A DNA stretch of 64,000 bases from an uncultured Alphaproteobacteria bacterium (GCA_963728585.1 CAVSLB010000006.1:565304-629303); one strand, 5' to 3'; positions 1-64,000 are shown, counted from the stretch's first letter. Program-made: numbers and translations. Notes: generated by a model not told the origin, from the letters alone.

Positions 1-79
1 GTTGCAGATACGCGCTGAGTGCAAGCAGAAAAACCAGCAACGCCGGAGCTGTTATCGCGAAGTATGTGAAGATCGGCAT
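1..79 (-). CDS. partial CDS (N-terminus only, continues past window start); hydrophobic N-terminal segment, function unknown
   Basis: ATG at 79-77 on the minus strand opens MPIFTYFAITAPALLVFLLALSAYLQ..., open to the window edge. Absent from the ORF track because it is truncated. Confidence 0.3.
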   Translation of the reverse strand, partial: MPIFTYFAITAPALLVFLLALSAYLQ

Positions 80-117
80 TACTTTTCGAACCCCCCGCCC
101 CTCGACCACAGCGATCA

Positions 118-260
118 TTGTTGAAACAAGCGGGCCGCCGGACGGTGTGCGGGTGCCCGGCGGCCCTCACCGTTCGGGGACATTGGGACGTACCCCTGGG
201 GCTGAATGGAGATTACAATTCCGGTGGGTCGCCGACAGGACGACTTGGCGTCAACCTTAA
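118..260 (-). repeat. copy 1 (reverse orientation) of a ~145 bp structured intergenic repeat of unknown family
   Basis: Reverse complement starts TTAAGGTTGACGCCAAGT, contains GGAATTGTAATCTCCATTCAGCC and the hairpin GGGCCGCCGG-N15-CCGGCGGCCC. The same blocks occur at 30693-30832 and 37664-37812. Confidence 0.75.
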
Positions 261-419
261 TTCCGGCGGCCGCTTCCCGCGGCGCGGAAACCCGAGCATT
301 CTTGGCAAAAATATAGGGGCCGCGTTTCAACGGCCCCTATGAGTTTGGGTTGAAATGAACGCGAAAGTTTCGCAGGCTCTGCGGAGAGCGTTCAATATAT
401 ACAGTTATACGTGCGGAGA

Positions 420-545
420 TCAGCACCACGGCTCCCGCCGCGGGCAGCAAAGGTAGGGCCGCGCCAGCCCGTCGGCGATCAGCACCGCCGCAACGTCTTT
501 GCCTGCCGCCTTCAGCACACCGCAGCCTCGCCCGGACTATGGCAA
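420..545 (-). pseudogene. 3' fragment of a thermonuclease-like gene (paralogue of 1386-1818)
   Basis: About 120 nt align with 1386-1510, with a 12-nt gap. Minus strand reads ...GCGVLKAAGKDVAAVLIADGLARPYLCCPRREPWC* (stop at 420-422). No N-terminal part or start codon. Confidence 0.6.
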
Positions 546-554
546 TCGGCTGTG

Positions 555-1289
555 CTATTCGCGTGGGTAAACAAACACGAAGCGGACGCGCGAGTGCACG
601 AGGGAATCAGAGGGCGCGTCGCCGCCAACGACGCCACCAATGAGGAGGAGTGATGAGCCGCCGTTGGCCACTGTAAACTGAACAAGGCCGCCCGCACGGG
701 TGGCAATCGGCTCCATCGCGATATGAAGAAATTCGCTCAGTGGTTGATCCAAATACTGGAGCCGCAGTTGCGGTCCGACCTCAGGGGGACAGAGTTCAAA
801 GCCGAGTTGCTTCGCTCGCGCATAAACCTCCGCAATTGGCGCACCGTCGTATCCGAACCCCAACTCAGAAACCGAGAGGACGACGAGATTCACTTCCGCT
901 TTCGTCGTCCTCAGGACGAAGGCAGGTCGATCAATAATTGCCAATGCCGAATTGCCAAGAGCACACCGCGGCGTCGGCAGTTTCATCGCGCCGATGGGAA
1001 ATATGGCCTGGCCGCTATTACCGTCCCATGAGTTTTCCAGCCCACAGTTTAGCGAAAGCAAATCTTCGCGAAGGATATTGACGGCACTGTAAGTGCCGAG
1101 CGCGATCGTTTTCCAGGTCGTGGTACTCCCAGCTGCCTTGGCATCGGTCAACACGGTCCATTGATCCTCCGATGCACTAGGCGCCCGAATAGGGCTTCGC
1201 GTATCCGATTGCGCGAGAGGTGCGTTGGCAGCTCCGAGACTGACAACCAAAACGCACGCGGTGCTCAGAAAACGGCGCTGGAGCCTCAT
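555..1289 (-). CDS. secreted hypothetical protein
   Basis: ORF 555-1313. The internal start MRLQRRFLSTACVLVVSLGAANAPLAQS looks like a Sec signal peptide. No domain recognised. Confidence 0.6.
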   Translation of the reverse strand: MRLQRRFLSTACVLVVSLGAANAPLAQSDTRSPIRAPSASEDQWTVLTDAKAAGSTTTWKTIALGTYSAVNILREDLLSLNCGLENSWDGNSGQAIFPIGAMKLPTPRCALGNSALAIIDRPAFVLRTTKAEVNLVVLSVSELGFGYDGAPIAEVYARAKQLGFELCPPEVGPQLRLQYLDQPLSEFLHIAMEPIATRAGGLVQFTVANGGSSLLLIGGVVGGDAPSDSLVHSRVRFVFVYPRE

Positions 1290-1385: not shown

Positions 1386-1818
1386 TCAGCACCAAGGCTC
1401 CCGCCGCGGGCAACTATCGCCGCTGCAAAGGTAGGGCCGCGCTAATCCGTCGGCGATCAGCACGTCCGCAACGTCTTTGCCCGCCGCCTTCAGCACTCCG
1501 CACGCTCGCTCGGAATTGCAGGCTGGCGTACCTTCGGTTCCAGCCGGACAGGAGCATTGGACAAGCGCGAGGTCGAGGCCACCGCCGGCAACGAGCTGGC
1601 GCAGCTTGAGCGCGGCCTTGGCCGCAAGCGATCGCTCAGAATTCGCAGTTCGCATACATATCCGCTTCCGGCGTGTCGAAGCCAACTAGGCCGACGGTCT
1701 TCCCGCCGGCAGTAATGGTGTCGGCATCGATCACCTGGATCGCGCCGGATGCGACGGGGTCGGCGCTTGCGTTCGCGGCAATCAGGAGCAAGAGGCAGGC
1801 GAGAGCCGGAATCCTCAT
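1386..1818 (-). pseudogene. thermonuclease (SNase-like) family protein, frameshifted by +1 nt near 1640
   Basis: ORF 1636-1818 gives a signal peptide plus VIDADTITAGGKTVGLVGFDTPE (SNase-like motif). ORF 1386-1685 gives the C-terminal Cys-rich part (...CGVLKAAGKDVADVLIADGLARPYLC...). Deleting one base of the AA/TT pair at 1640-1641 joins ...ANCE-SERSLAAKAALKL... Confidence 0.75.
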
Positions 1819-1871
1819 TGTAGTTGTCCTCTGTTGTTATACCGTCTCCTATAACGGCACTGACGACATGC

Positions 1872-2366
1872 CTACGGGACGCGTTTCCACTTCAACTCGT
1901 TTGAGCCGCCGGAGGCGGCGACCTCACTGGACAATGTCAGTTCGTCAGTGGAAAGCGCGAGAGACCACTTGCGATCCGTACCATTGAAACTTGGAAATGA
2001 GCTGCTCTCGACGTGCTGGGTGAGTAATTTGCCCGTAGCGTCGATCGAATATGTCCCGAAATATGAGAGGACGCCCTGGGCCATGGACTCAAATTCGTTT
2101 CCAGCATCAGACCCAGTATCAGACCGAAGAATTTGGTAATTAAATTGGCCAGTGCTGGCGAAAGACTGCGTGCCTGCCCCGTTTCCGCCGAAAGGATCGA
2201 ACTTGGTGCCATCGGGCCGGGTGTCGACCGCCGACACGAACTTCCAGGTTCCGACAAGCTGTTCCTTGAGCGATTTTTCTTGGGCGAAAGCGTCGCCCGA
2301 CACCCAGCCGGCCGTTCCTCCTATTGCTATGATCACCGCCAGAACGAGAATCTCACGTCGACGCAT
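1872..2366 (-). CDS. lipocalin-like domain-containing secreted protein
   Basis: Signal peptide MRRREILVLAVIIAIGGTAGWVSGDAFAQ followed by LVGTWKFVSAV...GTYSID..., typical of the bacterial lipocalin-like domain family. SD GAGGAGG lies upstream. Confidence 0.75.
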   Translation of the reverse strand: MRRREILVLAVIIAIGGTAGWVSGDAFAQEKSLKEQLVGTWKFVSAVDTRPDGTKFDPFGGNGAGTQSFASTGQFNYQILRSDTGSDAGNEFESMAQGVLSYFGTYSIDATGKLLTQHVESSSFPSFNGTDRKWSLALSTDELTLSSEVAASGGSNELKWKRVP

Positions 2367-2516
2367 CGTGACCTCCTCTTTTGCCTAGAATAAATAGAAG
2401 TCCGCGCCTGCATGGCGCCGTGCAGTAATGGTAGGCGTTGATCAAGCGAGAGCTGGCATCCTCATTATAGTAGTCCTCTGTTGTTGTACCGGCTCCTATA
2501 TGCGGCACTGACATGC

Positions 2517-3036
2517 CTACTGGACGCGTTTCCATTTCAACTCGTTTGAGCCGCCGGAGGCGGCGACCTGACTGGCCAATGTCAGCTCGTCAGCGGAAAG
2601 CGCGATGGACCACTTCCGGTCAGCTCCGTTGAAATTCGGGAATGAGCTGCTCTCGACGTGCTGGGTGAGTATTTTGCCCGTAGTGTCGATCGAATATGTC
2701 CCGAAATATGAAAGGACGCCCTGGGCCATGGACTTAAATTCCTCGGGGGTGCCCTGCTGACGATTGTTGGATGCCAGCTTTGGAATATCAGATCGGATAT
2801 TCTGGAACGAGAAATGCGAGAGACCATCGAACGTCATCAAACCTGTCCCCTTGCCGTCGGTGGGATCAAACCGGGTGCCATCGGACCGGGTGTTGACAAC
2901 AGAGACTAACGCCCATGTTCCGACGAGCTGTTCCTTGACCAATTTTTCTTCGGCAGAAGAGTCGCCCGACAACCAGCCGGCGGTTGCTCCTATTGCTATG
3001 ATCACCGCCAGAACGAGAATCTCACGTCGACTGCAT
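2517..3036 (-). pseudogene. tandem paralogue of the lipocalin-like gene with a 1-nt insertion in codon 2
   Basis: Same SD and ATG context as copy 1 (ggaggtcacgATG). Copy 1 reads ATGCGTCGACGTGAG (MRRRE). Copy 2 reads ATGCAGTCGACGTGA, so the extra base at 3032 puts a stop at codon 5. The conserved ...RREILVLAVIIAIGATAGW... continues in the next frame with no in-frame start. Confidence 0.7.
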
Positions 3037-3458
3037 CGTGACCTCCTCTTTTGCCATGAATAATAGAAGTCCGCGCCACCAAGGCGCGTGCCCGTATGCG
3101 CGGGGCTGCTCCCGCTTCGAAAGCCAGTTCTGATGAGTGCGAGAATGCCTACCGACGGCACCAGGGCTGCAAACGATAGAAGCGGAGACTTCGGTACGTC
3201 GCCGTTTTGAGCAGCTCTTCGGACAAACCAACGTTTGTTCGGTAGCCGATAGTGGACCTTCTGTGGAGAAAGACAATAGACATTCGCCGCTGCGCGCGAA
3301 CAGCCTGTCAGGCTGGTGTCGTTTAGAAGGACCTTAAGTGCCGGGCGTTCTGTTATGCCTGTTGCCTGGTCACCAACTACGTAAGGCGAGCTGACGTACC
3401 CGCTGCAAGCGAAGGTAATCCCCACCACTGATGAAACACAAACTGCTGCCGATCTTCG

Positions 3459-3480
3459 CCGCCCTTTTGGGCGGTTTTTT
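3459..3480 (+). terminator. rho-independent terminator-like hairpin with no obvious upstream gene
   Basis: CCGCCC-TTTT-GGGCGG followed by T6. Confidence 0.45.
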
Positions 3481-3580
3481 ATTGGCCTGGTCGGTCATGC
3501 CGCCTGTGCAAGCAAACGCTGGCCCGGCGTTGCGCCGATGATCTTCTGTTTTATCCCGCCTGCCACTGGAGATGTGACCC

Positions 3581-3769
3581 ATGTTCTACATCGCTATCCC
3601 GTCGCTCATCTTCGGCCTGTTCATGGCCTGGATGGCCTGGGGCGACAGGAAGTATGAGCCGGACCCGCTCAGGCTCGGCCCCTGGGGTCACTACAGCCTG
3701 ACGGTCGCGCTGCTTGTCGGCTCCGCGTCAACCGTCGCCACCGCCATTGGCGTGGTGTTCTTCGGATGA
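3581..3769 (+). CDS. small two-TM membrane protein (holin-like position in the lysis cassette)
   Basis: GGAG SD 9 nt upstream. 62 aa with two hydrophobic segments. Its stop overlaps the lysozyme start (ATGA at 3766-3769). Confidence 0.55.
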   Translation: MFYIAIPSLIFGLFMAWMAWGDRKYEPDPLRLGPWGHYSLTVALLVGSASTVATAIGVVFFG

Positions 3770-4872
3770 GCGAGAAATTTCACAGCAAGCTCGTGTTCGC
3801 GGCGGCGGGCCTGATCTTCTTCGGCGGCGTGATCGTCTGGACACTCGTCTACGGCAAGCCGGAGAACTCCCTGCATGTAAGCGCGCAGTCCTGGAGCTTC
3901 ATGCTCTGCGCCGGCCTTTTCGCCGGCATTGGCTTCGGCGCCATCGCGCATCTCATCCCCGGATTCAAGGCTCCTGAAAAATCAACGCCGGCGACGACGC
4001 CGCCACCCGTCCGAGATAAAACCAGAATGAAACGCAAGCTTGGCAAGAAGGGCCTCGATCTCATCAAGAGCTTCGAGTCCTTCGTCCCCTATGTTTATGA
4101 CGACCTCATTCCCCCGGTTAAGGGAAAATATCGGGAGTGGAACGGCGGCGCGGTCAAGGGAACGCTGACCATCGGCTACGGCCACACCGACGCGGCCAAA
4201 CATCCGCTCAAGATCGAGCGGGGCCTCAAAATATCGCAAGCCAGGGCGCTGGAAATCCTCGACGTCGATCTCGATGAGTGCGAGGAGGCGGTGGACCGGC
4301 TGGTCAGGGTTTCGCTCACCCAAGGCCAGTTCGACGCGCTGGTTTCCTTCGCCTTCAACTGCGGCACCGGCAATCTGCGGAAGTCCTCGCTGCTGAGGAA
4401 ACTCAACGCCGGCGATTATGATGGCGCCCGCGCGTGCTTCGATCTCTACACCCGCTCCAAGGGGAAAGTTCTGCGCGGCCTTGTGCGCAGGCGCGATGCC
4501 GAGCAGGCTTTGTGGGGCGATACCGCCGATGGCGTGCTGCTTCCGGAGGAGCCGGTCACGCACCCGGCGGAAGTCGACGCTCCCATTGCGCCCATCGATG
4601 CCCCGCCGCCGGCGCAGCAGGACGATGCCCCGCCGCAGGCCGCGCCCGAACCGGCATCCAGGACCGGCATCAGCGAAGGCGCGAAAGTCGGCATCGGCGC
4701 CGGTTTCGTCGGTCTGTTGACGCAAGCCTGGGAAGTCCTCACGCAAGCACCCGAAACACTGTTGCAAGCGATGGTCGCTGCGACACAGAAGCCCGCCTTC
4801 TGGATCTTTGCCGTTGTGATCGGCGCTTGCGTCTATGTCTGGCATCGCCGCAGTCAACAGAAAGTGGCCTAG
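3766..4872 (+). CDS. GH24 (phage T4-type) lysozyme with N-terminal and C-terminal TM segments and a Pro-rich linker
   Basis: LDLIKSFESFVPYVYDD...GTLTIGYGHT...LTQGQFDALVSFAFNCGTGN...RGLVRRRDAEQALW matches the GH24 E/D/T catalytic-core pattern. Hydrophobic N-terminus (2 segments) and C-terminus (FWIFAVVIGACVYVW). Confidence 0.85.
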   Translation: MSEKFHSKLVFAAAGLIFFGGVIVWTLVYGKPENSLHVSAQSWSFMLCAGLFAGIGFGAIAHLIPGFKAPEKSTPATTPPPVRDKTRMKRKLGKKGLDLIKSFESFVPYVYDDLIPPVKGKYREWNGGAVKGTLTIGYGHTDAAKHPLKIERGLKISQARALEILDVDLDECEEAVDRLVRVSLTQGQFDALVSFAFNCGTGNLRKSSLLRKLNAGDYDGARACFDLYTRSKGKVLRGLVRRRDAEQALWGDTADGVLLPEEPVTHPAEVDAPIAPIDAPPPAQQDDAPPQAAPEPASRTGISEGAKVGIGAGFVGLLTQAWEVLTQAPETLLQAMVAATQKPAFWIFAVVIGACVYVWHRRSQQKVA

Positions 4873-5235
4873 ATGCTCGGCGCATGGACCTTCGCCAATC
4901 TCTGGAACCTGCTGCTCGGCTCTTTCTCGCTCGCAAGCCTGATCGGCATGGCCGCGGCCGCCGTCGCGGTGCTGAGCCCGCCGTTTCTTTCCGCTCTCAT
5001 CCCCAACCTGCGCTGGATCGCGGTCTATGTCGCGCTCGGCGCCTTCTCTTACTCCTTCGTCGCAGGAAAGTTTTACCATGACGGACTTACCGCCAAGCAA
5101 TCGGAATGGGACGCGGCGCTGGCGCGCGAGGCTGTCGACGGCGAAAAGGCGCGCCGCGATGCCGAGCGCTCTGTTGCTCGCGACACTCCTGACAGCCTGC
5201 GCACCGACCCGCGCAACCGTGACAACTGGAAATAG
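4873..5235 (+). CDS. membrane protein with charged C-terminal tail (i-spanin-like or holin-like)
   Basis: Starts immediately after the lysozyme stop (TAGATG). Hydrophobic N-terminal ~70 aa, then KQSEWDAALAREAVDGEKARRDAER... Confidence 0.55.
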   Translation: MLGAWTFANLWNLLLGSFSLASLIGMAAAAVAVLSPPFLSALIPNLRWIAVYVALGAFSYSFVAGKFYHDGLTAKQSEWDAALAREAVDGEKARRDAERSVARDTPDSLRTDPRNRDNWK

Positions 5236-5369
5236 CGTGGCAGATTTCAAGGCGCGCTGCTCCGGCTGGCGCGCGATCAGCTTTCTCCGCCAAGGGCGAC
5301 ACCCCGCGCACCATCAAAGAAGTCCGCACGCATAATCAGACGGGCAAGAACAAGAAGTGTTGGAAGTGA
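5159..5369 (+). pseudogene. candidate o-spanin-type lipoprotein overlapping the previous gene out of frame; +1 frameshift near 5283
   Basis: ATG at 5159 inside 4873-5235 in another frame: MPSALLLATLLTAC (lipobox LTAC)APTRATVTTGNSVADFKARCSGWRAISF. Deleting one T of TTT 5282-5284 continues ...SAKGDTPRTIKEVRTHNQTGKNKKCWK*, stop 5367-5369. Confidence 0.45.
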
Positions 5370-5623
5370 TGCACGAGCCCGGCGACTACAAACACTGGCA
5401 CCTCGACAGGCGCGTCCCGCTCGCGCTCATCGTCACGATTGTCATGCAAACCGCGGGGCTGGTGTGGTGGGCCTCCAGCCTTTCCGAACGGGTCAATTCG
5501 CTCGAGCGCACGCGGGAAGCCACGGCTCCGCAAGCCGACCGCCTGACCAGGGTGGAGGTCAAGCTGGAGGTCGTGCAGCAGGGCATCGACCGCATCGAGC
5601 GGCTGATCCGCAAAGACCCGTAA
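5369..5623 (+). CDS. small membrane-anchored coiled-coil protein
   Basis: ATG overlaps the preceding stop (TGATG). MHEPGDYKHWHLDRRVPLALIVTIVMQTAGLVWWASSL, then a heptad-like segment. Confidence 0.5.
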   Translation: MHEPGDYKHWHLDRRVPLALIVTIVMQTAGLVWWASSLSERVNSLERTREATAPQADRLTRVEVKLEVVQQGIDRIERLIRKDP

Positions 5624-5768
5624 CACTCCGATAGAGGGGGGCGGCAATGCCCTTCCGCCGGTGGCTGCCGAACGTGCTGCTGGCACTGATCGGCAGCGCC
5701 ATCCTGTTCGCCGTCGTCATCGCGCGATCGCGCAAACACCGAAAATCAAAACCCACGAGAGGCAACGA

Positions 5769-6650
5769 ATGCGCCTGATCCGCGCCGCGACCATCATGCT
5801 CGCCTTTTGCTCCGCGCCGACGCCGGCGCCGGCGCAAGGCTGGCCGGTCAGGGAGATCAATCATGCCATTGAGCAGACCAATTTCATCGTCAACGGCGGC
5901 TGCTCGGGCACGCTGATCAGCATCCGCGAAAAGCTGATCCTGACCAATTACCATTGCATCGAGCGTGAGGTTTCCTCGATCGAGCGCGAGGTGATGGACG
6001 AGCAGGGCTTTGTGCGCAAGGTGAAGGTCCGCAAATACAACGACGTCCCGGTGGTGCAGAACCGCTATGACGGTTTTATCCGCACCGGCTCGGCCTCCTA
6101 TGTCACCGAGATCGTGGCGGAGGCGAAGACCCGCGACCTTGCGCTGCTGAAAATCAAGGGCGAGATCCCCCACACTTATGCCAGCCCGTTGCTGCCGGAC
6201 GGCGAGAAGGTCGTGCGCGGCGAGCGCGTCTACACCGTGGGCAATCCGGCCGGCGAGGATGCCTCGCTGGTCGAGGGCATCGTGTCAAACGTCAACCGCA
6301 CCTTTGAGTTCGCCTGGACCGACGGCGCCAAGCTGCCGATGATCCAGTTCTCCGGCGGGCTGTTCGGCGGAAATAGCGGCGGCGCCTTATACGACTCCCG
6401 GGGACGGCTGATCGGCGTTCCCGCCGCCGGCTATCCCAGCGCCACTTTCATCGGCTTCGCCATTCCGGTCGAAGTGGTCAAGCTGTTCCTGCAGGACGAC
6501 TGCCTTGCTTCGGTGTTTGACGACGCGGCCGACGACAAGAAATGCCGCGCGGAAAAGGAGCCCGGAAGAAGAAAGATTAGGGCGGCGACGCCAGAGGGAT
6601 TGGCGGCTGCGCCAAAGGTAGAAATTCCAAAGCTACGGGTTTCGGGTTAG
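5769..6650 (+). CDS. trypsin-like (S1 family) serine protease, secreted
   Basis: Signal-like MRLIRAATIMLAFCSAPTPAPAQG. His motif LTNYHCI and Ser motif GNSGGALYD. Confidence 0.8.
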   Translation: MRLIRAATIMLAFCSAPTPAPAQGWPVREINHAIEQTNFIVNGGCSGTLISIREKLILTNYHCIEREVSSIEREVMDEQGFVRKVKVRKYNDVPVVQNRYDGFIRTGSASYVTEIVAEAKTRDLALLKIKGEIPHTYASPLLPDGEKVVRGERVYTVGNPAGEDASLVEGIVSNVNRTFEFAWTDGAKLPMIQFSGGLFGGNSGGALYDSRGRLIGVPAAGYPSATFIGFAIPVEVVKLFLQDDCLASVFDDAADDKKCRAEKEPGRRKIRAATPEGLAAAPKVEIPKLRVSG

Positions 6651-9367: not shown

Positions 9368-9442
9368 TGGTGGGCGCTGTAGGGATTGAACCTACGACCT
9401 CTCCCGTGTGAAGGGAACGCTCTCCCGCTGAGCTAAGCGCCC
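9368..9442 (-). tRNA. tRNA-Val (anticodon CAC), CCA encoded
   Basis: Reverse complement GGGCGCTTAGCTCAGCGGGAGAGCGTTCCCTTCACACGGGAGAGGTCGTAGGTTCAATCCCTACAGCGCCCACCA folds as a cloverleaf. Anticodon loop is TTCACAC. Confidence 0.95.
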
Positions 9443-9582: not shown

Positions 9583-10867
9583 TCAGTTTGGCTTCTGCGG
9601 CGCGATTTGCGTCACGCGGCTTTGCAGGGCGCGGATGCGCTCGGCCAGACTGCCTTTGCTCTCACCCTCGGCGCCGGCCCCGATATTCGGGGCGGTTGGC
9701 TCCCCGCCAATCGACACGCTCGGCGCCTCCCCGGCCAAAATGGTTTCGATCGGCGAGCCCGGGCCTTCCAGCGCCGCGGTCAGCCGGGCGACTTCCGCCG
9801 CGACATCGTTGATGCGCTCGCGCAAGAGCGCGCTCTCCACGCGCTCGGAAGCCCATGACGCCTCGGTATCGCGCTTCATGCTCGCCATTTCGCGGCGCAG
9901 CGCGGCCTGCTCTTCCGCGCGCGGTAGAGCTGCTCGCTCGAGCGCGGCCTTTTCCCCCTTCAGGCTTTCGATTTCGGAGCGCTGGCTGCCGCCGATGCCG
10001 GCGAGCTGGGCGCGCAGATCCGCCTCGGTCGTGCGCATGCCCTCGAGCTGGCTCTTCAGCTCGTTGCATTGATAGTCGCGCTCCGCCAGCAGCCTTGCTT
10101 GATCGGCTGAGCCGCGTCTCCAGTTCCTGCGCGCGGCGGCCGAGGATTTCGGCTTCTTTCGTCTGCGCGATCAGCTGGTGTTCGAGATCGGAGACACGAT
10201 CGGCCAGGTTGCCGACCTTGCTGCGCTCGGCGTTGAGCAGATCGCTCGCTTCCGCGGCATCGAAGCGTTCGCGGTCGAGCCGGTCCTCCGTGGTCTTGAA
10301 CTCGCGTTCGGTGTCGTTGACGTGATCCTTCAGCGCATCGACCTGGGTGCGCAGCGCGACCAGTTCGACGCGCTGGCTGTCATTGACCACCGATTGCTGA
10401 TCGAGCTTGCCGGTGAGCCTGGCGAGATCCTCCTGCTTCTCCGCCAGCGCGCGTTCGGCCTCGCGCATGGCGTTGAGTTTGAACGAGAGCTCTTCTTCGG
10501 TCGCGCGCAGCTGATCCTTCAGCGCCTTGTCGCGCGCTTCCAGCGCGAAGATGGTCGCGGTCTTTTCCCCCAGCTCCATCTTCAGGCGATTGATGGCATC
10601 GGATTTCTTGCCGAGCTCGGCGAGCTGGCTCGTGGTCTTGGCCTTCATCTGCTCGACGCTCATTTCCAGGCGCCGTGTCGACATGGCAAATTCGGCGCGC
10701 AGCTGATCCTTGTCGGCCTGGATTTCCGCCATCGAAAGCGGCGTGGCCGCCTCCAGGCGGCGCATGGTGAGGCGCACCGCGCGGGCTTGCACAAGCGGGA
10801 TGATGATCAGGCCGATGAGTGCCGCGAACAGGAACCCAATCCCGAAGAACATGATGGGTTCGACCAT
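9583..10867 (-). pseudogene. N-terminally membrane-anchored long coiled-coil protein, +1 frameshift near 10100-10125
   Basis: ORF 9662-10867 is coiled-coil up to ...AQELETRLS, then becomes Arg/Gly-rich nonsense. The adjacent frame continues ADQARLLAERDYQCNELKSQLEGMRTTEADL... into ORF 9583-10038. Confidence 0.7.
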
Positions 10868-12740: not shown

Positions 12741-15369
12741 ATGGACGATTTGTTGCGCGAATTTCTGACGGAAACCAACGAGAGTCTTGGCGTTGTCGAC
12801 GTCGAGCTTGTGCGTTTCGAGCAGGAACCAAACAACGCCAGCATCCTGGCCAACATTTTCCGCCTCGTTCACACCATCAAGGGCACTTGCGGCTTTCTCG
12901 GCCTGCCGCGCCTGGAAGCGCTGACGCACGCCGCCGAAGCCCTGATGGGTAAATTCCGCGAGGGCATGCCGGTCACCGGCGAGGCGGTGACGCTCGTTCT
13001 CTTCACCATCGACCGCATCAAGGAAATCCTCGACGAGCTGGAGAAGCACCATAAGGAGCCGGCAGGCAGCGACGAGGATCTGATCGACAAGCTCCAGGCG
13101 GTGCTGATGCAGACGCAGCCCACGGCTCCCCCGCCGCCGGGAACGGTTGGCTCGCTGGTTGAGCAAAGGCTGGAGCGCCGGTTGCGTCCCGGCGAAGTTT
13201 CGCTCGACGAATTGGAACGCGCCTTTCGCGAGACTCCCGGCCCGGAGCCGTTAAAGGCAAGCGCCGCTCCCGCCAGGGCCGCATCGGGGCAGAAGCCGAG
13301 GGACGACGAGAACGCCTCGGATTCCAAGATCTCCCATCAGTCGATCCGCGTGAATGTCGACACGCTCGAACAGCTGATGACCATGGTCTCCGAGTTGGTG
13401 CTGACGCGCAATCAACTCCTGGAGATGGTGCGCCGGCACGAGGACTTCGGAATTTAAGGTGCCGCTGCAGCGGCTCTCCAGCGTCACCGCCGAGTTGCAG
13501 GAAGGCGTCATGAAGACGCGCATGCAGCCGGTCGGCAATGCCTGGCAGAAGCTGCCGCGGATCGTGCGCGATTTGTCTGCCGAGCTCGGCAAGCAGATCG
13601 AGCTGGAGCTGAACGGCGCGGACACCGAGCTCGACCGCCAGGTGCTTGACCTGATCAAGGACCCGCTCACCCACATGGTCCGTAATTCGGCGGATCACGG
13701 CCTGGAGACTGCCGAGCAGCGACGCGCGGCCGGCAAGCCGGAGAAAGGCACGATACGGCTCTCGGCTTATCACGAGGGCGGTTACATCATTATCGAGATC
13801 GCCGACGACGGCCGCGGCCTCGATACCGAGAAGATCAAGGCGAAGGCGATCGCCAACGGGCTGGTCTCCGAGGCCGATGCGGACAAGATGTCGGAAGCGC
13901 AAATCCAGCGCTTCATCTTCACGCCGGGTTTCTCAACCGTGAGCGCGATCACCAGCGTATCCGGCCGCGGCGTCGGAATGGACGTGGTGCGCGCCAATAT
14001 CGATCAGATCGGCGGGACGATCGATGTCAGGTCCATGCAGGGCCGCGGCATGAGCGTGACCATCAAGATTCCGCTGACGCTCGCGATTATCGCGGCGCTT
14101 ATCGTGGAGGCCGGCGGGCACCGCTTCGCCATCCCGCAGCTTTCGGTGGTGGAATTGGTGCGCGCCCGCGGCAATTCCGAACATCGCATCGAGCGCATCA
14201 AGGACGCGGCGATGCTGCGGCTGCGCCACAAGCTGCTGCCGCTGTCCAAGCTCAGTCATTTGCTTGGTCTGGATCGGAACAAGCCGCAGGAAACCGACAC
14301 CGGCTTCATCGTCGTGACGCAAGTCGGCAACGAAACCTTCGGTGTCGTCGTGGACAGCGTGTTCCATACCGAAGAAATCGTGGTCAAGCCGATGTCCACC
14401 ATGCTGCGTCACATCGGCCTGTTCTCCGGCAACACCATTCTCGGCGACGGTTCGGTGATTCTGATTGTCGATCCCAACGGGCTTGCCCAGGCGCTCGGCA
14501 CCTCCGCGCGCGCCAGTAGCCAGATCGGCGAGGAAGCGGAAGCCGAAGCCGCGGAAACCAAGCAGTCGACCTCCATGCTGGTGTTCCGGGCCGGTTCTCC
14601 GCATCCGCGGGCAGTACCGCTTTCACTGATCACCCGGCTGGAAGAGATCGACGTCAACCGCATGGAGTTCTCCAACGGCCGCTATGTGGTGCAATACCGC
14701 GGCCAGCTGATGCCGCTTATTCCCATCAACGATGCGGTGCAGGTGAAGACCCACGGCCAGCAGTCGCTGCTGGTGTTCTCCGACGAAGGCCGCTCGATGG
14801 GCCTGATGGTCGACGAGATCGTCGATATCGTCGACGACACTCTCAATATCGAGGTCCGCGGCAATCGGCCGGGCGTGCTCGGTTCCGCCGTCATCAAGGG
14901 TCAGGCCACCGAGATCATCGATATCGAGCATTATCTGCCGCTGGCTTTCGAGGACTGGTTCCGCTCCAAGGACTTCTACGAGAGGCGGATCTCGCGCAGC
15001 GTCCTGCTGGTCGACGACTCGGCATTTTTCCGCAACATGCTGGCGCCCGTGCTGAAGGCCGCCGGTTACGACGTCACCACCGCCGCCGGCGGTGAGGAAG
15101 CGATGGCCCTGTTCCAGAAGGGCCGGCGCTTCGACGTCATTCTCACCGATATCGACATGCCGGGCATGGACGGTTTTGTTTTTGCCGAGAAGTTGCGCGA
15201 CGATCCGCGCACAGCCGGCATTCCGATCATCGGAATTTCTTCAATGGTTTCGCAGGATTTCGTCCAGCGCGGGCGCGAAGTGGGCTTCCACGACTATGTG
15301 GCGAAGTTCGACCGTCAGGGTCTGATTGCCGCCCTGAAGGAGCAGACCGCCGAGGCGCAGGCGGCATAG
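12741..15369 (+). pseudogene. cheA: chemotaxis histidine kinase CheA with C-terminal receiver domain, +1 frameshift at 13446
   Basis: ORF 12741-13457 carries Hpt (FRLVHTIKGTCGFLG). ORF 13459-15369 carries the kinase, a CheW-like domain and REC. Deleting one T at 13446-13447 gives continuous ...LEMVRRHED-SEFKVPLQRLSSVTAELQEGVMKTRMQP... Confidence 0.9.
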
Positions 15370-17556: not shown

Positions 17557-18424
17557 ACCCGGCCGACTACGATCTCCTCCGCAGGCTGCTGAAGGCAGCG
17601 CTCCGGCCTCGCCCTCGGCCCGGACAAGCAGTATCTGGTGGAAAGCCGGCTATTGCCGGTATCGCGCCGGATTGGCGTCGCGGGCCTCAACGGGCTGATG
17701 GAAAAGATCCGCCAGCCCGAAAACGAAGACCTGATCGTCCAGGTGGTCGAGGCCATGGCCACCAATGAATCGCTATTCTTTCGAGACAAAATACCCTTCG
17801 ACCATTTCCGCGACACCATCATTCCGGCGTTGCTGACCTCGCGCGCCAATCAGCGGCGCATCCGCATCTGGTGCGCGGCCGCCTCCACCGGGCAGGAGCC
17901 TTATTCACTGGCTATGGCATTGAAGGAGATGGGGCCGCAAGCTTTCCGGCTGGCAGACCGAGATTTTGGCAACCGACTTCTCGCTCGAGGTTTTGGAAAA
18001 GGCCAAGGCCGGAATTTACAGCCAGTTCGAGGTGCAGCGCGGGCTGCCGATTCAGATGCTGGTGAAATACTTCACCCAGGTCGGCGAGATGTGGCAGATC
18101 GCGCCGGAGATCCGCGCCATGGTGCGGTTCCGCCAGTTCAACCTGCTGCATGATTGCTCGCATCTCGGCATCTTCGACGTGGTGTTCTGCCGCAACGTGC
18201 TGATCTATTTCGACCGGCAGACCAAGATCGAGGTGCTGGACCGCATCGCGCGAGTCATCGAGAGCGATGGCTTTCTGGTGCTCGGCGCGGCGGAGACGGT
18301 GGTCGGCCTTACCAGCAGCTTCCGGCCGATCCCGGACAAGCGGGCGCTTTACGGGCCCAACCCCGTGCATCTGCGCGCGGGAGCGGCGGGCCTTCGGCGC
18401 TTTGTCGCGGCCAGCTCGCGGTAA
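17553..18424 (+). pseudogene. cheR: chemotaxis methyltransferase CheR, two +1 frameshifts (~17597, ~17940)
   Basis: GTG overlaps the cheB stop (GTGA). Frames run 0 -> 1 -> 2: MNPADYDLLRRLLK / ...GLALGPDKQYLVESRL...FFRD...IWCAAASTGQEPYSLAMALKEMGPQ / ...LSGWQTEILATDFS...VFCRNVLIYFD... Confidence 0.9.
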
Positions 18425-19363: not shown

Positions 19364-19371
19364 CGGCGGGG

Positions 19372-19553
19372 CCGCCCAAACAAAAGCCCCGCCGTGAGGC
19401 GGGGCTGAAGTCAGGAGGAGAGAGCCCTTCGGCTCCGGAACAACCGTCGTCAGGCAGCCGAAATCTTGGCTTCGTCGTCGCTCGGCTCGCGCAGCACATA
19501 GCCGCGGCCCCAGACCGTCTCGATGTAGTTTTTGCCGCTGGCAGGCATTCGCC
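19372..19553 (-). pseudogene. duplicated 3' end of ctrA (last ~34 codons plus 3' UTR and terminator)
   Basis: About 181 nt nearly identical to 22203-22385, including the terminator hairpin AGCCCCGCC-N4-GGCGGGGCT. One extra C relative to the intact copy near 19539. Homology stops abruptly at 19553. Confidence 0.85.
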
Positions 19554-19630
19554 CCGCGCATCTGCGCGCATCAGCAGGCTTTCGGCGCTTGGTCGCGGCC
19601 AGCTCGCGCTGAACGCTAAAGCCGCTTAGC
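19552..19630 (+). pseudogene. diverged duplicate of the cheR 3' end (last ~20 codons plus ~20 nt)
   Basis: ccccgcgcatctgcgcgc...ttcggcgctt.gtcgcggccagctcgcg.t.a..ctaaagccgctt aligns with 18361-18440 at roughly 80% identity by eye. Confidence 0.65.
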
Positions 19631-19883
19631 CGACGTCGCGCGCATCCTCGTCCGATGCTCCTTCGAGCGTGAAGCCAACTTTCAAGGTCACCTGAAAGTG
19701 CGCGACCTGACCATCGACGATATGCCCGCTGGTCCTGACGATTTCAAACCATCGCAGATGCCGCAGCGTCTTATGGGCGCGCATGATGGCGAGCCTGATG
19801 GCGTCTTCGATGCTGATGCCGGAGGTTCCGACCAGCTCGATCACGCGATAGGCATGGTTGGATTGCGCCGCCTCGCTCAGCAT
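19626..19883 (-). CDS. dodecin family protein
   Basis: ...[66 protein letters not shown] matches the dodecin pattern. An upstream in-frame ATG at 19961 is possible but would add an atypical extension. Confidence 0.8.
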
Positions 19884-20218
19884 GGAGACTTGCGCCGCGA
19901 AATCTGCGGCGCCGTCGCGGCCCGTTATTCCTGCAATTCCGCCTCCAGGATTTTCTTTCACGATCGCCTCGCATGTAATGAAAGATGAAAGCTTCTGATC
20001 AACCCGCGAATATCCCCAAGGGTTCCTGCGAGCAAAGCATCATCCAGGTGGTGACGATGCAGGAGCCACCGGCCGACCTTCTGCTCGCCATCACACCTGG
20101 AATTTCCGCTTTTGATCCTTGTTGGACATATTCCAGGGCCCAGCGTTTTCCAGGGCCCAGCGTTGAACGCAACGCGGTTCCGCTTGGAACCAACGCGAAA
20201 CCGATGCGGTTTAAGGGC

Positions 20219-40278: not shown

Positions 40279-40283
40279 GGCGA

Positions 40284-43177: not shown

Positions 43178-43178
<1 letters not shown>
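41240..43178 (-). pseudogene. REC-PAS-HWE histidine kinase-REC signalling protein, +1 frameshift in the C4 run at 41434-41437
   Basis: ILLVDDQPAKL...DVCMPDLDG (REC), then PAS (WDWDLVNRDWMWDE...), then the HWE-type H-box EVDHRAKNALALVQAI and a second REC (VMIVEDEALVA...). Removing one base joins ...LADLLTAARG-VPFIFVTGYGAESIDE... (ORF 41240-41434). The start ATG overlaps the upstream stop (TAATG at 43176-43180). Confidence 0.85.
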
Positions 43179-49479
<6,301 letters not shown>

Positions 49480-59267: not shown

Positions 59268-60539
59268 ATGCCGCCTGTTACGCCCGTACGGGTCTTCGAT
59301 CGTAGCTCCCCAATGAGTCCAATCGCGGCGAAATCGACGGTGCCTTCAGGAGATTTGCGCGACCGATGGTCGCGCGATTACCGCGCCGTTCGAGCGGAAA
59401 CTGAAAGGCGCGCTGCGCCGCTTTCACCGGAGGATCAGGTGGTGCAGTCGATGCCGGACGCCAGTCCGACGAAATGGCATCGCGCGCATACCACCTGGTT
59501 CTTCGAGCAATTCCTGCTGCTGGAAAACGATCCGCATTACCAGCGCTTCGATGAGCGCTTTGGCTATTTGTTCAATTCCTATTACGTCGCGGTGGGACCG
59601 CGGCATGCGCGTCCTCAGCGCGGGCTGGTAACGCGGCCGGGCGCCCACGAGGTTGCTGCCTACCGTGCGCATGTGGATGCCGCCGTGGAGCAACTGCTCA
59701 CGGCCGGCCATGAGGAGGCGCTGCAAAAAATCATTCCGATTGTGGAAATGGGCCTGCACCACGAGCAGCAGCATCAGGAGTTGATCCTCACCGATATCCT
59801 GCATGCCTTCGCGCAAAATCCGACGCATCCGGTCTATGACGGGAAATGGCAGATGCCGGGCAGCCAGCCCAACTCCGCAGGCTTCGCCGACGTGGCAAGC
59901 GGCATCCACACCATCGGCCATGATGACGAAGGATTCTTCTTCGACAATGAAGGCCCGCAACACCGGGTGTTTCTGCAGCCGGCGCGCGTCGCGCGCAATC
60001 TCGTCACCAACGCCGAATGGTTCGATTTCATTGCCGCGGACGGCTACGCAACTCCTGCCCTGTGGCTGTCGGATGGGTGGGATATGGCGAAAGCCGCGGG
60101 CTGGGAGGCACCGGGCTATTGGCAGAAAGTCGACGACGAGTGGTTCACGATGACACTCGGTGGTTTGCGTCCGGTCGACCCAGCAGCGCCGGTCTGTCAC
60201 GTCAGTTACTATGAAGCGGACGCTTTCGCGCGCTGGCGGGGCTGCCGTCTACCCAGCGAGGCGGAATGGGAAGTGACCGCGCGGGCGGGCGCGCTGGCCG
60301 ACGCTTTCGGCTCCGTTTGGCAGTGGACGCAAAGCTCTTACGCTCCTTATCCCGGCTACCGCCCGGTGGCAGGCGCGCTCGGTGAATACAATGGCAAGTT
60401 CATGGTCAATCAAATGGTCTTGCGCGGCAGCTCGCTGGCGACGCCGGAAGGCCACGCACGCGTGAGTTATCGCAACTTCTTCCCGCCGTCGGCGCGTTGG
60501 CAATTCAGCGGGTTACGCCTGGCGGATGACGGCAATTGA
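59268..60539 (+). CDS. egtB: ergothioneine biosynthesis protein EgtB (sulfoxide synthase; DinB_2 plus FGE-sulfatase domains)
   Basis: ...QSMPDASPTKWHRAHTTWFFEQF...HHEQQHQELILTD...GNVWQWT-like SVWQWTQSSYAPYPGY...VLRGSS. The alternative start at 59313 is possible. Confidence 0.85.
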   Translation: MPPVTPVRVFDRSSPMSPIAAKSTVPSGDLRDRWSRDYRAVRAETERRAAPLSPEDQVVQSMPDASPTKWHRAHTTWFFEQFLLLENDPHYQRFDERFGYLFNSYYVAVGPRHARPQRGLVTRPGAHEVAAYRAHVDAAVEQLLTAGHEEALQKIIPIVEMGLHHEQQHQELILTDILHAFAQNPTHPVYDGKWQMPGSQPNSAGFADVASGIHTIGHDDEGFFFDNEGPQHRVFLQPARVARNLVTNAEWFDFIAADGYATPALWLSDGWDMAKAAGWEAPGYWQKVDDEWFTMTLGGLRPVDPAAPVCHVSYYEADAFARWRGCRLPSEAEWEVTARAGALADAFGSVWQWTQSSYAPYPGYRPVAGALGEYNGKFMVNQMVLRGSSLATPEGHARVSYRNFFPPSARWQFSGLRLADDGN

Positions 60540-60576
60540 TGCCGTACCCGAAAATCACAAACAAGATTGGTGCTCC

Positions 60577-61544
60577 ATGGTCGCGTTAAAAAAGACGGTG
60601 CAGAAATTCGAACTGCCAGATCCCGCCTCGCTATTCGCAGCGGACGTGCTGAAGGGCTTAAAGTCGACGCCGAAGCGGATTCCACCGAAATACTTTTACG
60701 ATAGGGCCGGCTGCGCGCTGTTCGAGCGGATCACAGACCTGCCGGAATATTACCTGACGCGCAGCGAGCTGCGCATCCTGGAGGACAACGCGGCGGCTAT
60801 CGCCAATTATATTCCGTCGGGCTCGGCGCTGGTGGAATTTGGCAGCGGCTCGAGCCGCAAGACACGCATCCTGCTCGCCGCAGCACCGCAGCTTGCGGCC
60901 TATGTGCCGGTGGATATCTGCGGCGAGATGCTGGAGGACGAAGCGGCCGAGCTGCGCCAGGAATTTCCCAAGCTCGATGATCTCGCCCGTGGCGGCGGAT
61001 TTTGCCCAACCGTTCGATCTGCCGGCCTCGGTGCCCGCCGCCCGCGTCGGATTTTTTCCCGGCTCGACCATCGGCAATTTCGAGCCGCACGAGGCCGCCG
61101 CTTTCCTGCGTCACGCCGGGCAAATTCTTGGCCGCGGCGCCACTCTGATCGTCGGCACGGATTTGCAGAAAGACAACAGCATCATTAACGCCGCTTACAA
61201 CGATGCTGCCGGAATAACCCGGGACTTCAATCTCAACATCCTCGTGCGCATCAACCGCGAACTCGATGGAAAATTCGACCTCGGCAGCTTCGAGCATCAC
61301 GCCTTTTATAATCGCGAGCGCCACCGCATCGAAATGCACCTGGCGAGCAGCAAGCGGCAAAAGGTGCGGGTGGCGGGCGAGACCATCGAGTTCCGCGCCG
61401 GCGAGACGATCCATACGGAAAGCAGCTACAAGTATTCGGTCGATTCATTCAGCGCGCTGGCGCGCGGCATCCGGATGGACGCTGGTGGCGTCCTGGAGCG
61501 ACCCGGACCGCTATTTCTGCGTCCATGCTCTGGCCCTGCGGTAA
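60577..61544 (+). pseudogene. egtD: L-histidine N-alpha-methyltransferase EgtD, two +1 frameshifts (~60978, ~61466)
   Basis: ...PKRIPPKYFYDRAGCALFERITDLPEYYLTRSE...LVEFGSGSS... / ISPVAADFAQPFDLP...GFFPGSTIGNF...ESSYKYSVDSFSALAR / ASGWTLVASWSDPDRYFCVHALALR*. Frames run 1 -> 2 -> 0. Confidence 0.85.
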
Positions 61545-61674
61545 GGCGGACGTCGGCACACCTAAGCCTTTAGACGAGTATTCAGGGCCTTGGATGCCCT
61601 GAAGGGTTCGATATAGTCGCGGCCGCAAAATGACGGCCTTAGCCGTCAATCGGACGATCCAGAGCGGGGACAGC

Positions 61675-62559
61675 ATGAAAATCGTTGGCTTCAAGGGACA
61701 GGACGGGCGGCGCCTGGGCGTTGTCGAGGGCGACCAGCTCATCGACTTGCAGGCAGCAGATCCGAACGCGCCGAAGGACCTCGGCATGTGGCTGCGTCAG
61801 AGCAAGGGCGACCTATCCGCTATCGCCGATCTTGCCAAACGGGCCCCGGCTTCGGCGCGCGTGCCGCTCCAGACCATCACCTATTCGCTGCCGGTGGCCG
61901 CTCCGGGGAAGATCGTCTGCCTGGGACTTAACTATCTCGAGCACATCAAGGAAGGCTTCCAGAAAGACAACATTCCGAAATTTCCCACGATTTTCATGCG
62001 CTGCACGACCTCGCTGGTCGCGCATGATCAGCCGATGCTGCGCCCATCCATGACCAACAGCCTGGATTACGAAGCCGAGCTGGTGGTGATCATCGGCAAG
62101 CCCGCCAAGCATCTGACGATGGCCAACGCACTCTCATGCATCGCCGGCTATTCCTGCTTCAACGACGGCTCGGTGCGCGAATTTCAACGCCGCACCAGCC
62201 AGTGGGACATGGGCAAGAATTTCGACGCCACCGGAGGTTTCGGGCCGTGGATGATCTCGGCGGATGAAGTCCCGCCCGCGGGCAAGGGCCTGAAGATCGA
62301 GAGCCGGCTTAATGGCAAGGTCATGCAATCCGACAACACCGACAATATGATGTTTCCGGTGGCGGAGACGCTTGTCGACATCAGCCAGGCCATGACGCTG
62401 GAACCGGGCGACGTCATCGTCACCGGCACGCCTTCGGGCGTGGGCTTCGCGCGCAAGCCTCCGGTCTGGATGAACGAAGGCGACGTTTGCGAGATCGAGA
62501 TAGAAGGCGTGGGCCTGCTTCGTAATCCCATCAAGGAAGCAAAGCCGGCCGCGCAGTAG
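61675..62559 (+). CDS. fumarylacetoacetate hydrolase (FAH) family protein (fumarylpyruvate hydrolase-like, given the neighbouring gentisate dioxygenase)
   Basis: MKIVGFKGQDGRRLGVVEG...GLNYLEH...DYEAELVVIIGK...GDVIVTGTPSGVG. Confidence 0.8.
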   Translation: MKIVGFKGQDGRRLGVVEGDQLIDLQAADPNAPKDLGMWLRQSKGDLSAIADLAKRAPASARVPLQTITYSLPVAAPGKIVCLGLNYLEHIKEGFQKDNIPKFPTIFMRCTTSLVAHDQPMLRPSMTNSLDYEAELVVIIGKPAKHLTMANALSCIAGYSCFNDGSVREFQRRTSQWDMGKNFDATGGFGPWMISADEVPPAGKGLKIESRLNGKVMQSDNTDNMMFPVAETLVDISQAMTLEPGDVIVTGTPSGVGFARKPPVWMNEGDVCEIEIEGVGLLRNPIKEAKPAAQ

Positions 62560-62575
62560 TGGAATTGGGGACGGA

Positions 62576-63151
62576 ATGGCCGAAAAGCTGAACGTCCTGA
62601 GCATCTGCGGGAGCCTGCGGAAAGGCTCGTTCAATGCCATCGTGGAGCGGGCGCTGCCTGCGCTGGCGCCGGAGCAAATGAGCATCACTCCGGCGCCGCC
62701 GCACCGCCAGTTTCCGATCTACAATTTCGACATCCAGCATGAGCAGGGCATTCCCGCCGACGTCGCCACACTGGGCAAGGCGATCCTCGCCGCCGACGGC
62801 GTGGTGATCGTCAGTGCGGAATATAATTTTTCGATTCCCGGCGGCTTGAAGAATGCGATCGACTGGCTGTCGCGGATGAAGGAACCGTCGCCCTTCGCAG
62901 GCAAACCTTTTGCGATTCAGTCCGCGACCAGCGGGTCGGTCGGCGGCGCGCGGATGCAATATCACCTGCGCCAGGTGCTGAACGGGCTTAACGCCTTCGT
63001 CCTCAACAGCCCGGAGATCTTCATCGGCAATGCCAAGTCGAAGGTGGATGAAGCAAAGCGCGAGCTGACGGACGAGACCACCCGCGATTTCATCCGCAAG
63101 CAGCTTGCTGCCTTTGCCGTCTTCATCGAGCGGGTTCGCCCGAAGGGCTGA
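62576..63151 (+). CDS. NADPH-dependent FMN reductase family oxidoreductase
   Basis: LNVLSICGSLRKGSFN...DGVVIVSAEYNFSIPGGLKNAIDWLS. Confidence 0.8.
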   Translation: MAEKLNVLSICGSLRKGSFNAIVERALPALAPEQMSITPAPPHRQFPIYNFDIQHEQGIPADVATLGKAILAADGVVIVSAEYNFSIPGGLKNAIDWLSRMKEPSPFAGKPFAIQSATSGSVGGARMQYHLRQVLNGLNAFVLNSPEIFIGNAKSKVDEAKRELTDETTRDFIRKQLAAFAVFIERVRPKG

Positions 63152-63198
63152 CTGCTCTATAATGCGGCCGGAGGGTCCGAGGACCTAGGGAGCACAGC

Positions 63199-64000
63199 AT
63201 GCCGATCTCCACCGCGAAAAATGCCGCAGGCGCGAGCGGCCCGTCGCGCTCTCCGGAAGAAATTCGTGCGTTGCGCGGCGCCTATTATGAGCGCATCGGC
63301 CGCAAGCATATGGCGCCGCTATGGGAGGTAATGCGCGAACTGGTTCCGAACGAGCCGGCGACGCCATTTCTTCCGGCGCTTTGGCGTTTTGATGATTTCA
63401 AGCCGATGGTGTTTGAGGGCGGCGAGCTGATCACCGCCAAGGAAGCCGAGCGCCGGGTGCTGGTGCTGGAAAATCCCGGCATGCGCGGAAAATCCGCGAT
63501 CACCCAATCGCTCTATGCCGGTATCCAGCTCGTGCTGCCGGGTGAGATCGCACCGCCGCATCGGCACACCGCGAGCGCTATCCGCTTTATCCTGGAAGGC
63601 GAGGGCGCCTATACCCAAGTCGACGGCGAGAAGACGGAGATGCGTCCGGGCGATTTCGTCATCACGCCGGGCTGGACCGCGCACGACCACGGCAACGACA
63701 CCAGGCAGCCGATGATGTGGCTCGACGTGCTCGATCTGCCGATGGTGAATTTTTATGCCGCCGCTTTCTTCGAGGATTTGGGTGAAGAGCCGCAGAATAC
63801 CCGGCGCGGGCATGGCGATTCGATCGAGCGCTTCGGATCGGGGGTTTTTCCCGATGGCAGCGACACCTCGCTCAGACGCAGCCCGATCGTCAATTATCCC
63901 TATGCGCGCATGAAGCCGATTTTGCAGCGCCTGCAGCGCTCGGGCGATGTCGATCCGCGGCATGGCGCGCGCATCCGCTATGCCAATCCGTTCAACGGCG
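63199..64000 (+). CDS. gentisate 1,2-dioxygenase (partial, continues past the window end)
   Basis: Hand translation from ATG 63199: MPISTAKN...YYERIGRKHMAPLWEVM...LENPGMRGKSAITQSLYAGIQLVLPGEIAPPHRHTASAIRFILEGEGAYTQVDGE...GDFVITPGWTAHDHGN. Absent from the ORF track because no stop lies within the window. Confidence 0.8.
   Translation, partial: MPISTAKNAAGASGPSRSPEEIRALRGAYYERIGRKHMAPLWEVMRELVPNEPATPFLPALWRFDDFKPMVFEGGELITAKEAERRVLVLENPGMRGKSAITQSLYAGIQLVLPGEIAPPHRHTASAIRFILEGEGAYTQVDGEKTEMRPGDFVITPGWTAHDHGNDTRQPMMWLDVLDLPMVNFYAAAFFEDLGEEPQNTRRGHGDSIERFGSGVFPDGSDTSLRRSPIVNYPYARMKPILQRLQRSGDVDPRHGARIRYANPFNG

Follow-up and report, generated by a model that had tools for sequence, protein, structure and literature searches.

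Single surplus bases in a 64-kb alphaproteobacterial metagenome stretch are probably consensus errors at sites where similar templates differ

Do the many frameshifts in this stretch of DNA belong to the bacterium, or to the assembly from which it was read? The stretch analysed (hereafter the window) comprises 64,000 nucleotides (nt) of one contig of an uncultured Alphaproteobacteria bacterium (GCA_963728585.1 CAVSLB010000006.1:565304-629303), in which genes such as cheA, cheB and cheR, two sensor kinase genes, crp-like genes, egtD and exoD are interrupted by single extra bases. Taken at face value, this would suggest the loss of chemotaxis and ergothioneine synthesis, along with two sensor kinases and several regulators. 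In this study, we show that close relatives lack the extra bases and carry the genes intact, and that many of the extra bases repeat an allele which a relative or a paralogue carries at the adjacent site. It is very likely that they are consensus or polishing errors of a long-read metagenome assembly in which templates were collapsed, and not mutations of the organism, whose genes are most likely intact in nature. An initial annotation of the window had listed 22 frame disruptions as single inserted bases; all 22 are present, each as one surplus base (+1) with no codon gap, within 11 nt of where it had been placed. We also agree with that annotation that automated pipelines would label these genes pseudogenes.

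The window has an alphaproteobacterial base composition (61% G+C), and its nearest relatives at the genome level are uncultured Hyphomicrobiales/Xanthobacteraceae-like metagenome-assembled genomes (MAGs). Among species representatives, the best is L002 (the same as L093), a Microflora Danica MAG contig at about 95% identity, and a metagenome scan with the window gave one close contig only. Orthologous DNA was obtained by exact-protein look-ups with intact neighbour genes and with intact homologues of the broken genes, and fell into three groups: contigs at 96-99% identity, mostly short-read and from many other samples (L001, L083-L088, L096-L098, L100-L105, L138-L145); long-read contigs of a sister species at 95% (L089, L090, L092, L093); and contigs of a lineage at 90-94% (L091/L099, L094, L095). 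Four further exact-protein look-ups matched nothing. Moreover, we wrote a frameshift-aware protein-to-DNA aligner, which was applied with paralogues and with a homologue of the poly-HAMP kinase from a Rhizobium plasmid (82% identical in amino acids). A Viterbi frame tracker based on codon usage found the frame changes in genes of high third-position G+C, but it is blind at 1-3.5 kb and 27-41 kb, and therefore homology was used instead. For the window itself, an automated search for target-specific indels gave too much noise, as the relatives in the set are mostly other species. Twenty of the 22 sites are supported by orthologous DNA, one (3032) by a paralogue and one (about 5283) by reading frames and a profile match. 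At their refined coordinates, with contigs of the Joint Genome Institute marked JGI, protein lengths in amino acids (aa) and open reading frames as ORFs, they are the following.

1644, minus strand: extra C (plus-strand letter) in the SNase-like nuclease gene 1386-1818; lacking in L002; the junction joins YANCE to SERSLAAKA
3032, minus strand: extra base directly after the ATG of the second lipocalin paralogue (2517-3036), from the paralogue comparison; Lipocalin_5 domain found
5270-5290 (about 5283), plus strand: +1 change in the o-spanin-like lipoprotein ORF of a lysis cassette, from the frames; exact base not placed
10105, minus strand: extra G in the coiled-coil protein gene 9583-10867; lacking in L002; L091 has G at the adjacent site, so that both alleles are present
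13445-13446, plus strand: extra base in cheA (12741-15369); the window reads GAGGA[CT]TCGG
16724, plus strand: extra G in cheB; lacking in seven relatives; G at the adjacent site in L091 and L094
16937, plus strand: extra G in cheB, breaking the relatives' CCCC run; lacking in seven relatives; L091 and L094 have G at the adjacent site
17596, plus strand: extra C in cheR; lacking in six relatives; no alternative allele seen
17938, plus strand: extra C in cheR; chimera of the natural haplotypes GGGGCCG-AA and GGG-CCGCGA
21093, plus strand: extra C in a small 81-aa ORF (21062-21307); lacking in L096-L098, where an intact 81-aa gene is called; chimera of multi-base haplotypes
28752, plus strand: extra G in exoD (28682-29267); lacking in L089, which reads AGRAKTQVSVRELR in a single frame
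32457, plus strand: extra T in the crp-like gene 32439-33179; lacking in eight JGI contigs
32490, plus strand: extra T in the crp-like gene; lacking in eight JGI contigs
32808, plus strand: extra T in the crp-like gene; lacking in eight JGI contigs
41444, minus strand: extra C in the C-terminal receiver domain of the HWE kinase (41250-43193); lacking in six JGI contigs; adjacent C in L099
43770, minus strand: extra C in the poly-HAMP hybrid kinase (43178-about 49478); lacking in four JGI contigs and by protein-to-DNA alignment; L099 allele in tandem
44082, minus strand: extra G in the poly-HAMP kinase, by protein-to-DNA alignment and JGI contigs; L099 has G at the adjacent site
45167, minus strand: extra C at the H-box of the poly-HAMP kinase, by protein-to-DNA alignment and JGI contigs
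46269, minus strand: extra base in the poly-HAMP kinase, by alignment to the Rhizobium homologue; lacking in L099; not a tandem allele
49433, minus strand: extra G near the 5' end of the poly-HAMP kinase; lacking in L001; chimera of L001-like and L099-like sequence
60979, plus strand: extra G in egtD (60526-61544); lacking in L087 and L088
61465, plus strand: extra C in egtD; lacking in L087 and L088, which differ from each other (GGG versus CGG); the window is the union of both

The sign of these 22 had been read correctly, but the list was incomplete. It had missed +1 events in coding DNA at 20244 and 20799 (considered below), at 21355 and 40788 and possibly at 39979, as well as six extra bases in non-coding DNA.

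21355, plus strand: extra C at the 5' end of Crp/Fnr copy 2; lacking in L096-L098; C at the adjacent site in L094 and L095
39979, no strand: extra A, coding status uncertain; lacking in L101 and L102
40788, plus strand: extra A near the 3' end of the membrane-protein ORF 40221-about 40830; lacking in five JGI contigs
23436, no strand: extra G, window-specific, non-coding; lacking in seven relatives
31295, no strand: extra T, window-specific, non-coding; lacking in L138-L140
49659, no strand: extra G, non-coding; lacking in L001; chimera of L001-like and L099-like sequence
49902, no strand: extra G, non-coding; lacking in L001; L099 allele in tandem
61588, no strand: extra C, non-coding; lacking in L087 and L088
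63166, no strand: extra G, non-coding; lacking in L087

The site at 21355 counts as coding only if the 254-aa start that the relatives give to Crp/Fnr copy 2 holds. The five JGI contigs without the base at 40788 carry a 178-aa membrane-protein gene whose stop lies further downstream. Several other candidates were tried and set aside. Extra bases at 12709, 19375 and 19401 are common to the sister species and are natural length variants. A paralogue alignment suggested a fourth event in the crp-like gene (32436), which comparison with orthologues does not show. Apparent -1 transitions at 3763, 8278/8657, 43178 and 58781 are gene boundaries, the DUF1937 and DUF6494 domains being complete. Finally, a base missing from the window at 8341 is most likely a surplus base in L002 (about 4460): the difference was put down to L002 because the DUF1937 domain of the window is intact in one frame, in which case the error probably sits in the species-representative MAG.

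More than 25 independent contigs of the 96-99% group lack every extra base that they cover. Over 39.9-46.2 kb, six JGI contigs (98.3-98.9% identity) are free of gaps among themselves and differ from the window by 1.1-1.7% substitutions; the only indels are six extra bases of the window. The eight JGI contigs that cover the crp-like region (98.3-99.1% identity) likewise lack the extra bases there. In the independent contigs, CheA (875 aa), the HWE kinase (645 aa), Crp (245 aa) and other genes are called as intact. The initial annotation had reasoned that orthologues split at the same points would speak against frameshifts altogether; these contigs are without the extra bases and their genes are whole. 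At cheA, the window reads GAGGA-CT-TCGG where a single site (13445) is C in L083 (GAGGA-C-TCGG) and T in five sister contigs (GAGGA-T-TCGG). For the two sites placed without orthologous DNA, the first lipocalin paralogue (1872-2366) has an identical ribosome-binding site and start, ATGC-GTCGACGTGAG, without the extra base of 3032, and the repaired 69-aa protein of the site near 5283 has a match to PHROG 1275 (Rz-like spanin) that spans the junction (E = 1.4e-4).

Repair of the window gives coherent proteins. When 25 bases are removed and one is added, 15 ORFs are obtained, none with an internal stop, and alignments to references are full length with few gaps or none. The repaired CheA aligns to its reference over 875 aa with 861 identical residues and 0 gaps, the HWE kinase is identical to P0001 at 637 of 642 positions, the crp-like protein to P0121 at 243 of 245 and EgtD to its reference at 283 of 295, whilst CheB, CheR and the 2,099-aa kinase are full length against theirs. 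Before repair, the Pfam domain Methyltransf_33 is divided between the two egtD pieces (1-124 and 109-282). The statement that removal of one base restores canonical motifs was borne out for HELRTP/LNSILILG, RGVPFIFVTGYG and HED/SEFK. In a collection of 15 billion proteins, the truncated 636-aa CheA and 183-aa ExoD pieces each occur on a single 779,555-bp NCBI/ENA contig, from which the window evidently derives.

It might be argued that a single strain has very recently begun to lose these genes under relaxed selection on chemotaxis, signalling and other accessory functions; for chemotaxis and signalling genes, the initial annotation had kept relaxed selection open. The affected genes are indeed mostly accessory (che, kinases, crp paralogues, egtD, exoD and the lysis cassette), and there is no coding event in 22.2-28.7 kb or 49.5-60.9 kb. 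However, the unevenness of the spread falls short of significance (chi-square P = 0.15 and 0.11), no event is common to any relative, and extra bases are found in non-coding DNA too. Neither nonsense mutations nor larger deletions nor insertion sequence (IS) elements accompany the frameshifts, and the repaired ORFs are free of stops. A single gene takes up to five hits with no other decay, which makes a pseudogene implausible. Most substitutions between the window and its relatives are synonymous changes at third positions, and this applies equally to broken and intact genes. For synonymous versus non-synonymous differences, the two broken kinases give 58:14 and intact genes 47:9; cheA gives 15:14, and a comparison of two intact relatives 62:45. 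The affected genes are thus under purifying selection, with no relaxation. Extrapolated to the genome, the same rate would break roughly every second or third gene. Moreover, bacterial indels are usually biased toward deletions, and an insertion-only spectrum in non-repeat contexts runs counter to that bias. We consider genuine pseudogenisation very improbable.

The density of indels points the same way. The coding tally is 26 insertions against 1 deletion (two-sided binomial P = 4e-7). Over about 31 kb with near relatives, we counted coding and non-coding events manually on the basis of the gene calls of the relatives. The coding density of insertions, 0.75 per kb, is about the same as the non-coding density of 1.7 per kb, whereas for one-base deletions the two values are 0.04 and 3.1 per kb, an approximately 80-fold coding depletion (Fisher P = 5e-5). 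This would be expected if the deletions are natural polymorphisms that selection has filtered, and if the insertions never faced it. The absence of the bases from relatives, the synonymous excess and the occurrence of truncated products on one contig only support the systematic insertion-type consensus error that the initial annotation preferred.

What kind of consensus error inserts a base in this manner? To look for a source, the extra bases were removed, all relatives were re-aligned, and we asked whether any relative carries the removed base at a flanking site. This was the case for 14 of 31 insertions, compared with 5.4% for random insertions (P = 2e-10), and for 13 of the 21 where a relative below 96% identity exists (6.9% expected, P = 1e-10). 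At 10105, 16724, 16937, 20244, 20799, 21355, 41444 and 44082, the extra base is the allele of a more distant relative at the adjacent site (that of Crp/Fnr copy 2 at 20244 and 20799), while 17938, 21093, 43770, 49433 and 61465 are chimeras of two multi-base haplotypes. At the start of cheR (17926-17940), the relatives show two haplotypes of equal length, ATGGGGCCG-AA and ATGGG-CCGCGA, which differ through compensating one-base shifts and in residues 3-4. Of the 16 contig-specific insertions in the sister long-read contigs, 7 carry the same tandem-allele signature (P = 7e-5). These contigs also have gene splits of their own, through both insertions and deletions and at positions unlike those of the window, which again points to an artefact: CheA is split in L089, L090 and L092, CheB and ExoD in L089, and the poly-HAMP kinase of L099 into 1390 and 704 aa.

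For one gene, the second template lies in the window itself. Crp/Fnr copy 1 (19998-20942) has a tandem paralogue, copy 2, 1,158 nt downstream and 92% identical, which provides the alleles at all three of its lesions.

20244, plus strand: extra C in Crp/Fnr copy 1; lacking in L096-L098; the C is the allele of tandem copy 2
20312-20313, plus strand: missing G in Crp/Fnr copy 1, the only coding one-base deletion, by alignment
20799, plus strand: extra A in Crp/Fnr copy 1; lacking in L096-L098; copy-1/copy-2 chimera

The missing base is at the junction of the copy-1 sequence ATTGCCTG with the copy-2 sequence ATTCGCTG, at a GC/CG double difference. The initial annotation had found this sole -1 event, which is real, but had taken the gene for a decayed duplicate. 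After the three indels are fixed, copy 1 is full length and identical to its orthologue at 302 of 318 aligned positions. Copy 1 retains its own alleles between the lesions, and the pattern is therefore not one of gene conversion; in addition, recombination between partners of equal length cannot gain a base. The two paralogues and the small ORF lie in a 2.8-kb insert (19371-22373) flanked by a direct repeat of 171 nt (19371-19541 and 22203-22373, 97% identical); the insert is not in the sister species, where a single repeat copy aligns to both ends.

These observations suggest how the errors may have arisen. Two similar templates would be piled onto one consensus at many sites, namely reads of a co-occurring related lineage or, in the case of Crp copy 1, its tandem paralogue (92% identity, at a distance of 1.16 kb). 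Wherever a substitution or a small multi-base difference separates the templates, both alleles would be written in series, adding one base. The outcome would be almost only insertions, in non-homopolymer contexts and in coding and non-coding DNA alike; a GC/CG double difference would, once, have led to the loss of a base. The responsible step may be bubble polishing by the assembler, Medaka or mis-mapped reads, and the deposit pattern that the window shares with the Microflora Danica contigs of its sister lineages suggests that it came from the same Nanopore, Flye and Medaka pipeline. Assemblies of Microflora Danica were made from Nanopore data only with Flye --meta and one round of Medaka, and have sequencing errors at low coverage (PMC12313526). 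Flye collapses strains of roughly 98% identity into a single consensus (PMC8302730). A further report describes heterozygosity as introducing errors when haplotypes are collapsed (PMC7433188). A biological counterpart is conceivable, in which a heteroduplex with a diverged relative or paralogue is resolved by some process that fixes both mismatched bases in tandem; it would imply that a single strain has undergone a rapid series of +1 frameshifts which have yet to be purged by selection, and we regard it as highly improbable.

Ordinary random long-read indels, due to low coverage or chemistry, would explain the extra bases without any relation to polymorphism, the allele match being incidental. 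The sister long-read contigs have a similar error rate (about one per 1.6-3 kb), with many errors in homopolymers, and 17 of the 31 insertions in the window have no matching allele in the relatives. This explanation is nevertheless unlikely, as the tandem-allele match is 8-9 times chance (P about 1e-10), the sequence contexts do not fit it, and the sister contigs show nothing like the 26:1 ratio of the window. The initial annotation had placed about half of the sites in homopolymers. By our count, 19 of the 32 are singletons and the other 13 belong to runs of no more than 2-3 nt (run length including the extra base is 1 nt for 19 events, 2 nt for 11 and 3 nt for 2), so that none of the 32 stands in the run of at least about 4 nt that would mark a homopolymer-length error. 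The bias of inserted bases toward G or C is not significant (24 of 32 versus 61% GC, P = 0.08). The cause proposed initially therefore holds as regards consensus error, but the errors are tied to sites where two similar templates differ and not to homopolymers or chemistry.

Several points weigh against collapsed templates as the source. The sister long-read contigs have 16 insertions and 11 deletions, unlike the 26:1 of the window (Fisher P = 0.002), which indicates that a near-pure insertion bias is not general to that pipeline; the bias in the window would need a high share of collapsed-template events. For 17 insertions, no alternative allele is seen in the relatives compared, and several of these insertions have near relatives only. 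Outside Crp copy 1, the candidate second templates are relatives at 90-95% identity from other samples. The extra base is a synonymous alternative in 13 of 25 cases against a null of 0.42, which is not significant. Template mixing during consensus is an inference, and in the literature searched we found no description of an error that keeps both alleles and so shifts the frame by +1. In spite of these points, consensus error at collapsed templates is the reading that we favour.

The window has further features beside the interrupted genes. A phage-type lysis cassette (3766-5620) comprises an endolysin (Phage_lysozyme, 3766-4872), an i-spanin-like ORF (4873-5235) and the overlapping o-spanin-like lipoprotein; together with the two lipocalin paralogues, it lies in a segment of about 5 kb (within 1653-6638) that is not in the sister contig L002. 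The 3' part of the nuclease region has a partial second copy (127-534 and 1386-1653), and both copies contain a GC-rich element, GGCTCCCGCCGCGGGC, at 437 and 1403. Another 197 nt not in L002 (8087-8283) overlap a weak match, below the threshold, to the N-terminus of a PnuC-type transporter; the C-terminal part is missing, and this may be a gene remnant. The coiled-coil gene adjoins a tRNA-Val (anticodon CAC, 9368-9442) that is 90-100% identical in many distant relatives. Between a UbiE-like methyltransferase and a tRNA-Met (41079-41154), the region 27300-41154 has a lower GC content (57-60%) and weak codon bias; in L099, these flanks enclose an entirely different set of genes, and the region may thus be variable or an island. 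Within it, 34.9-39.95 kb holds no long ORFs, and comparison with plasmid DNA gave no match there. The poly-HAMP hybrid kinase (43178-49478, 2,099 aa) shares about 80% DNA and 82% protein identity with genes on many Rhizobium plasmids; as the remainder of the window has no such matches, horizontal transfer of the kinase is possible.

As biology, the broken state of these genes is not a real feature of the organism. For quality control, the error signature is useful and has apparently been little described. A one-base insertion that matches the neighbouring-site allele of a relative or paralogue may serve, by comparison with references, as a simple sign that strains or paralogues were collapsed in a long-read MAG, with which such frameshifts could be flagged and repaired. 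It is also a warning that such errors extend beyond homopolymers.

With regard to known systems, frameshift pseudogenes are typical of decaying bacterial genomes such as those of host-restricted pathogens, where, as here, small indels interrupt genes that are annotated as pseudogenes. The window differs in having no nonsense mutations, larger deletions or IS elements, in its unrelaxed selection and in lesions that are unshared and insertion-only. Programmed +1 recoding, either by ribosomal frameshifting or by transcriptional slippage, would let the genes be expressed despite the extra base. As in prfB, one extra nucleotide stands between two in-frame parts of a gene, and all events have the same sign. 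However, programmed sites of the prfB type are shared by relatives and marked by a defined shift motif, whereas those of the window are absent from every relative and share no motif; some genes would need up to five of them, and they occur in non-coding DNA too. Recoding is in our opinion practically negligible as an explanation.

The closest parallels are assembly errors. Indel frameshifts of long-read assemblies are well known and are described mainly as homopolymer errors (PMC9262707). The window resembles them in the division of one gene into adjacent ORF pieces, in the intact state of independent assemblies, in a frequency of about one event per 2-3 kb, and in sister long-read contigs that are hit at other positions; it differs from the published pattern, which is centred on homopolymers and includes deletions, in its singletons (19 of 32), its runs of no more than 3 nt and its 26:1 ratio. 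The published accounts that we found of errors from collapsed haplotypes, strains or paralogues do not give tandem alleles with a +1 shift; the window resembles such errors in that the extra base is the allele of the other template at the adjacent site.

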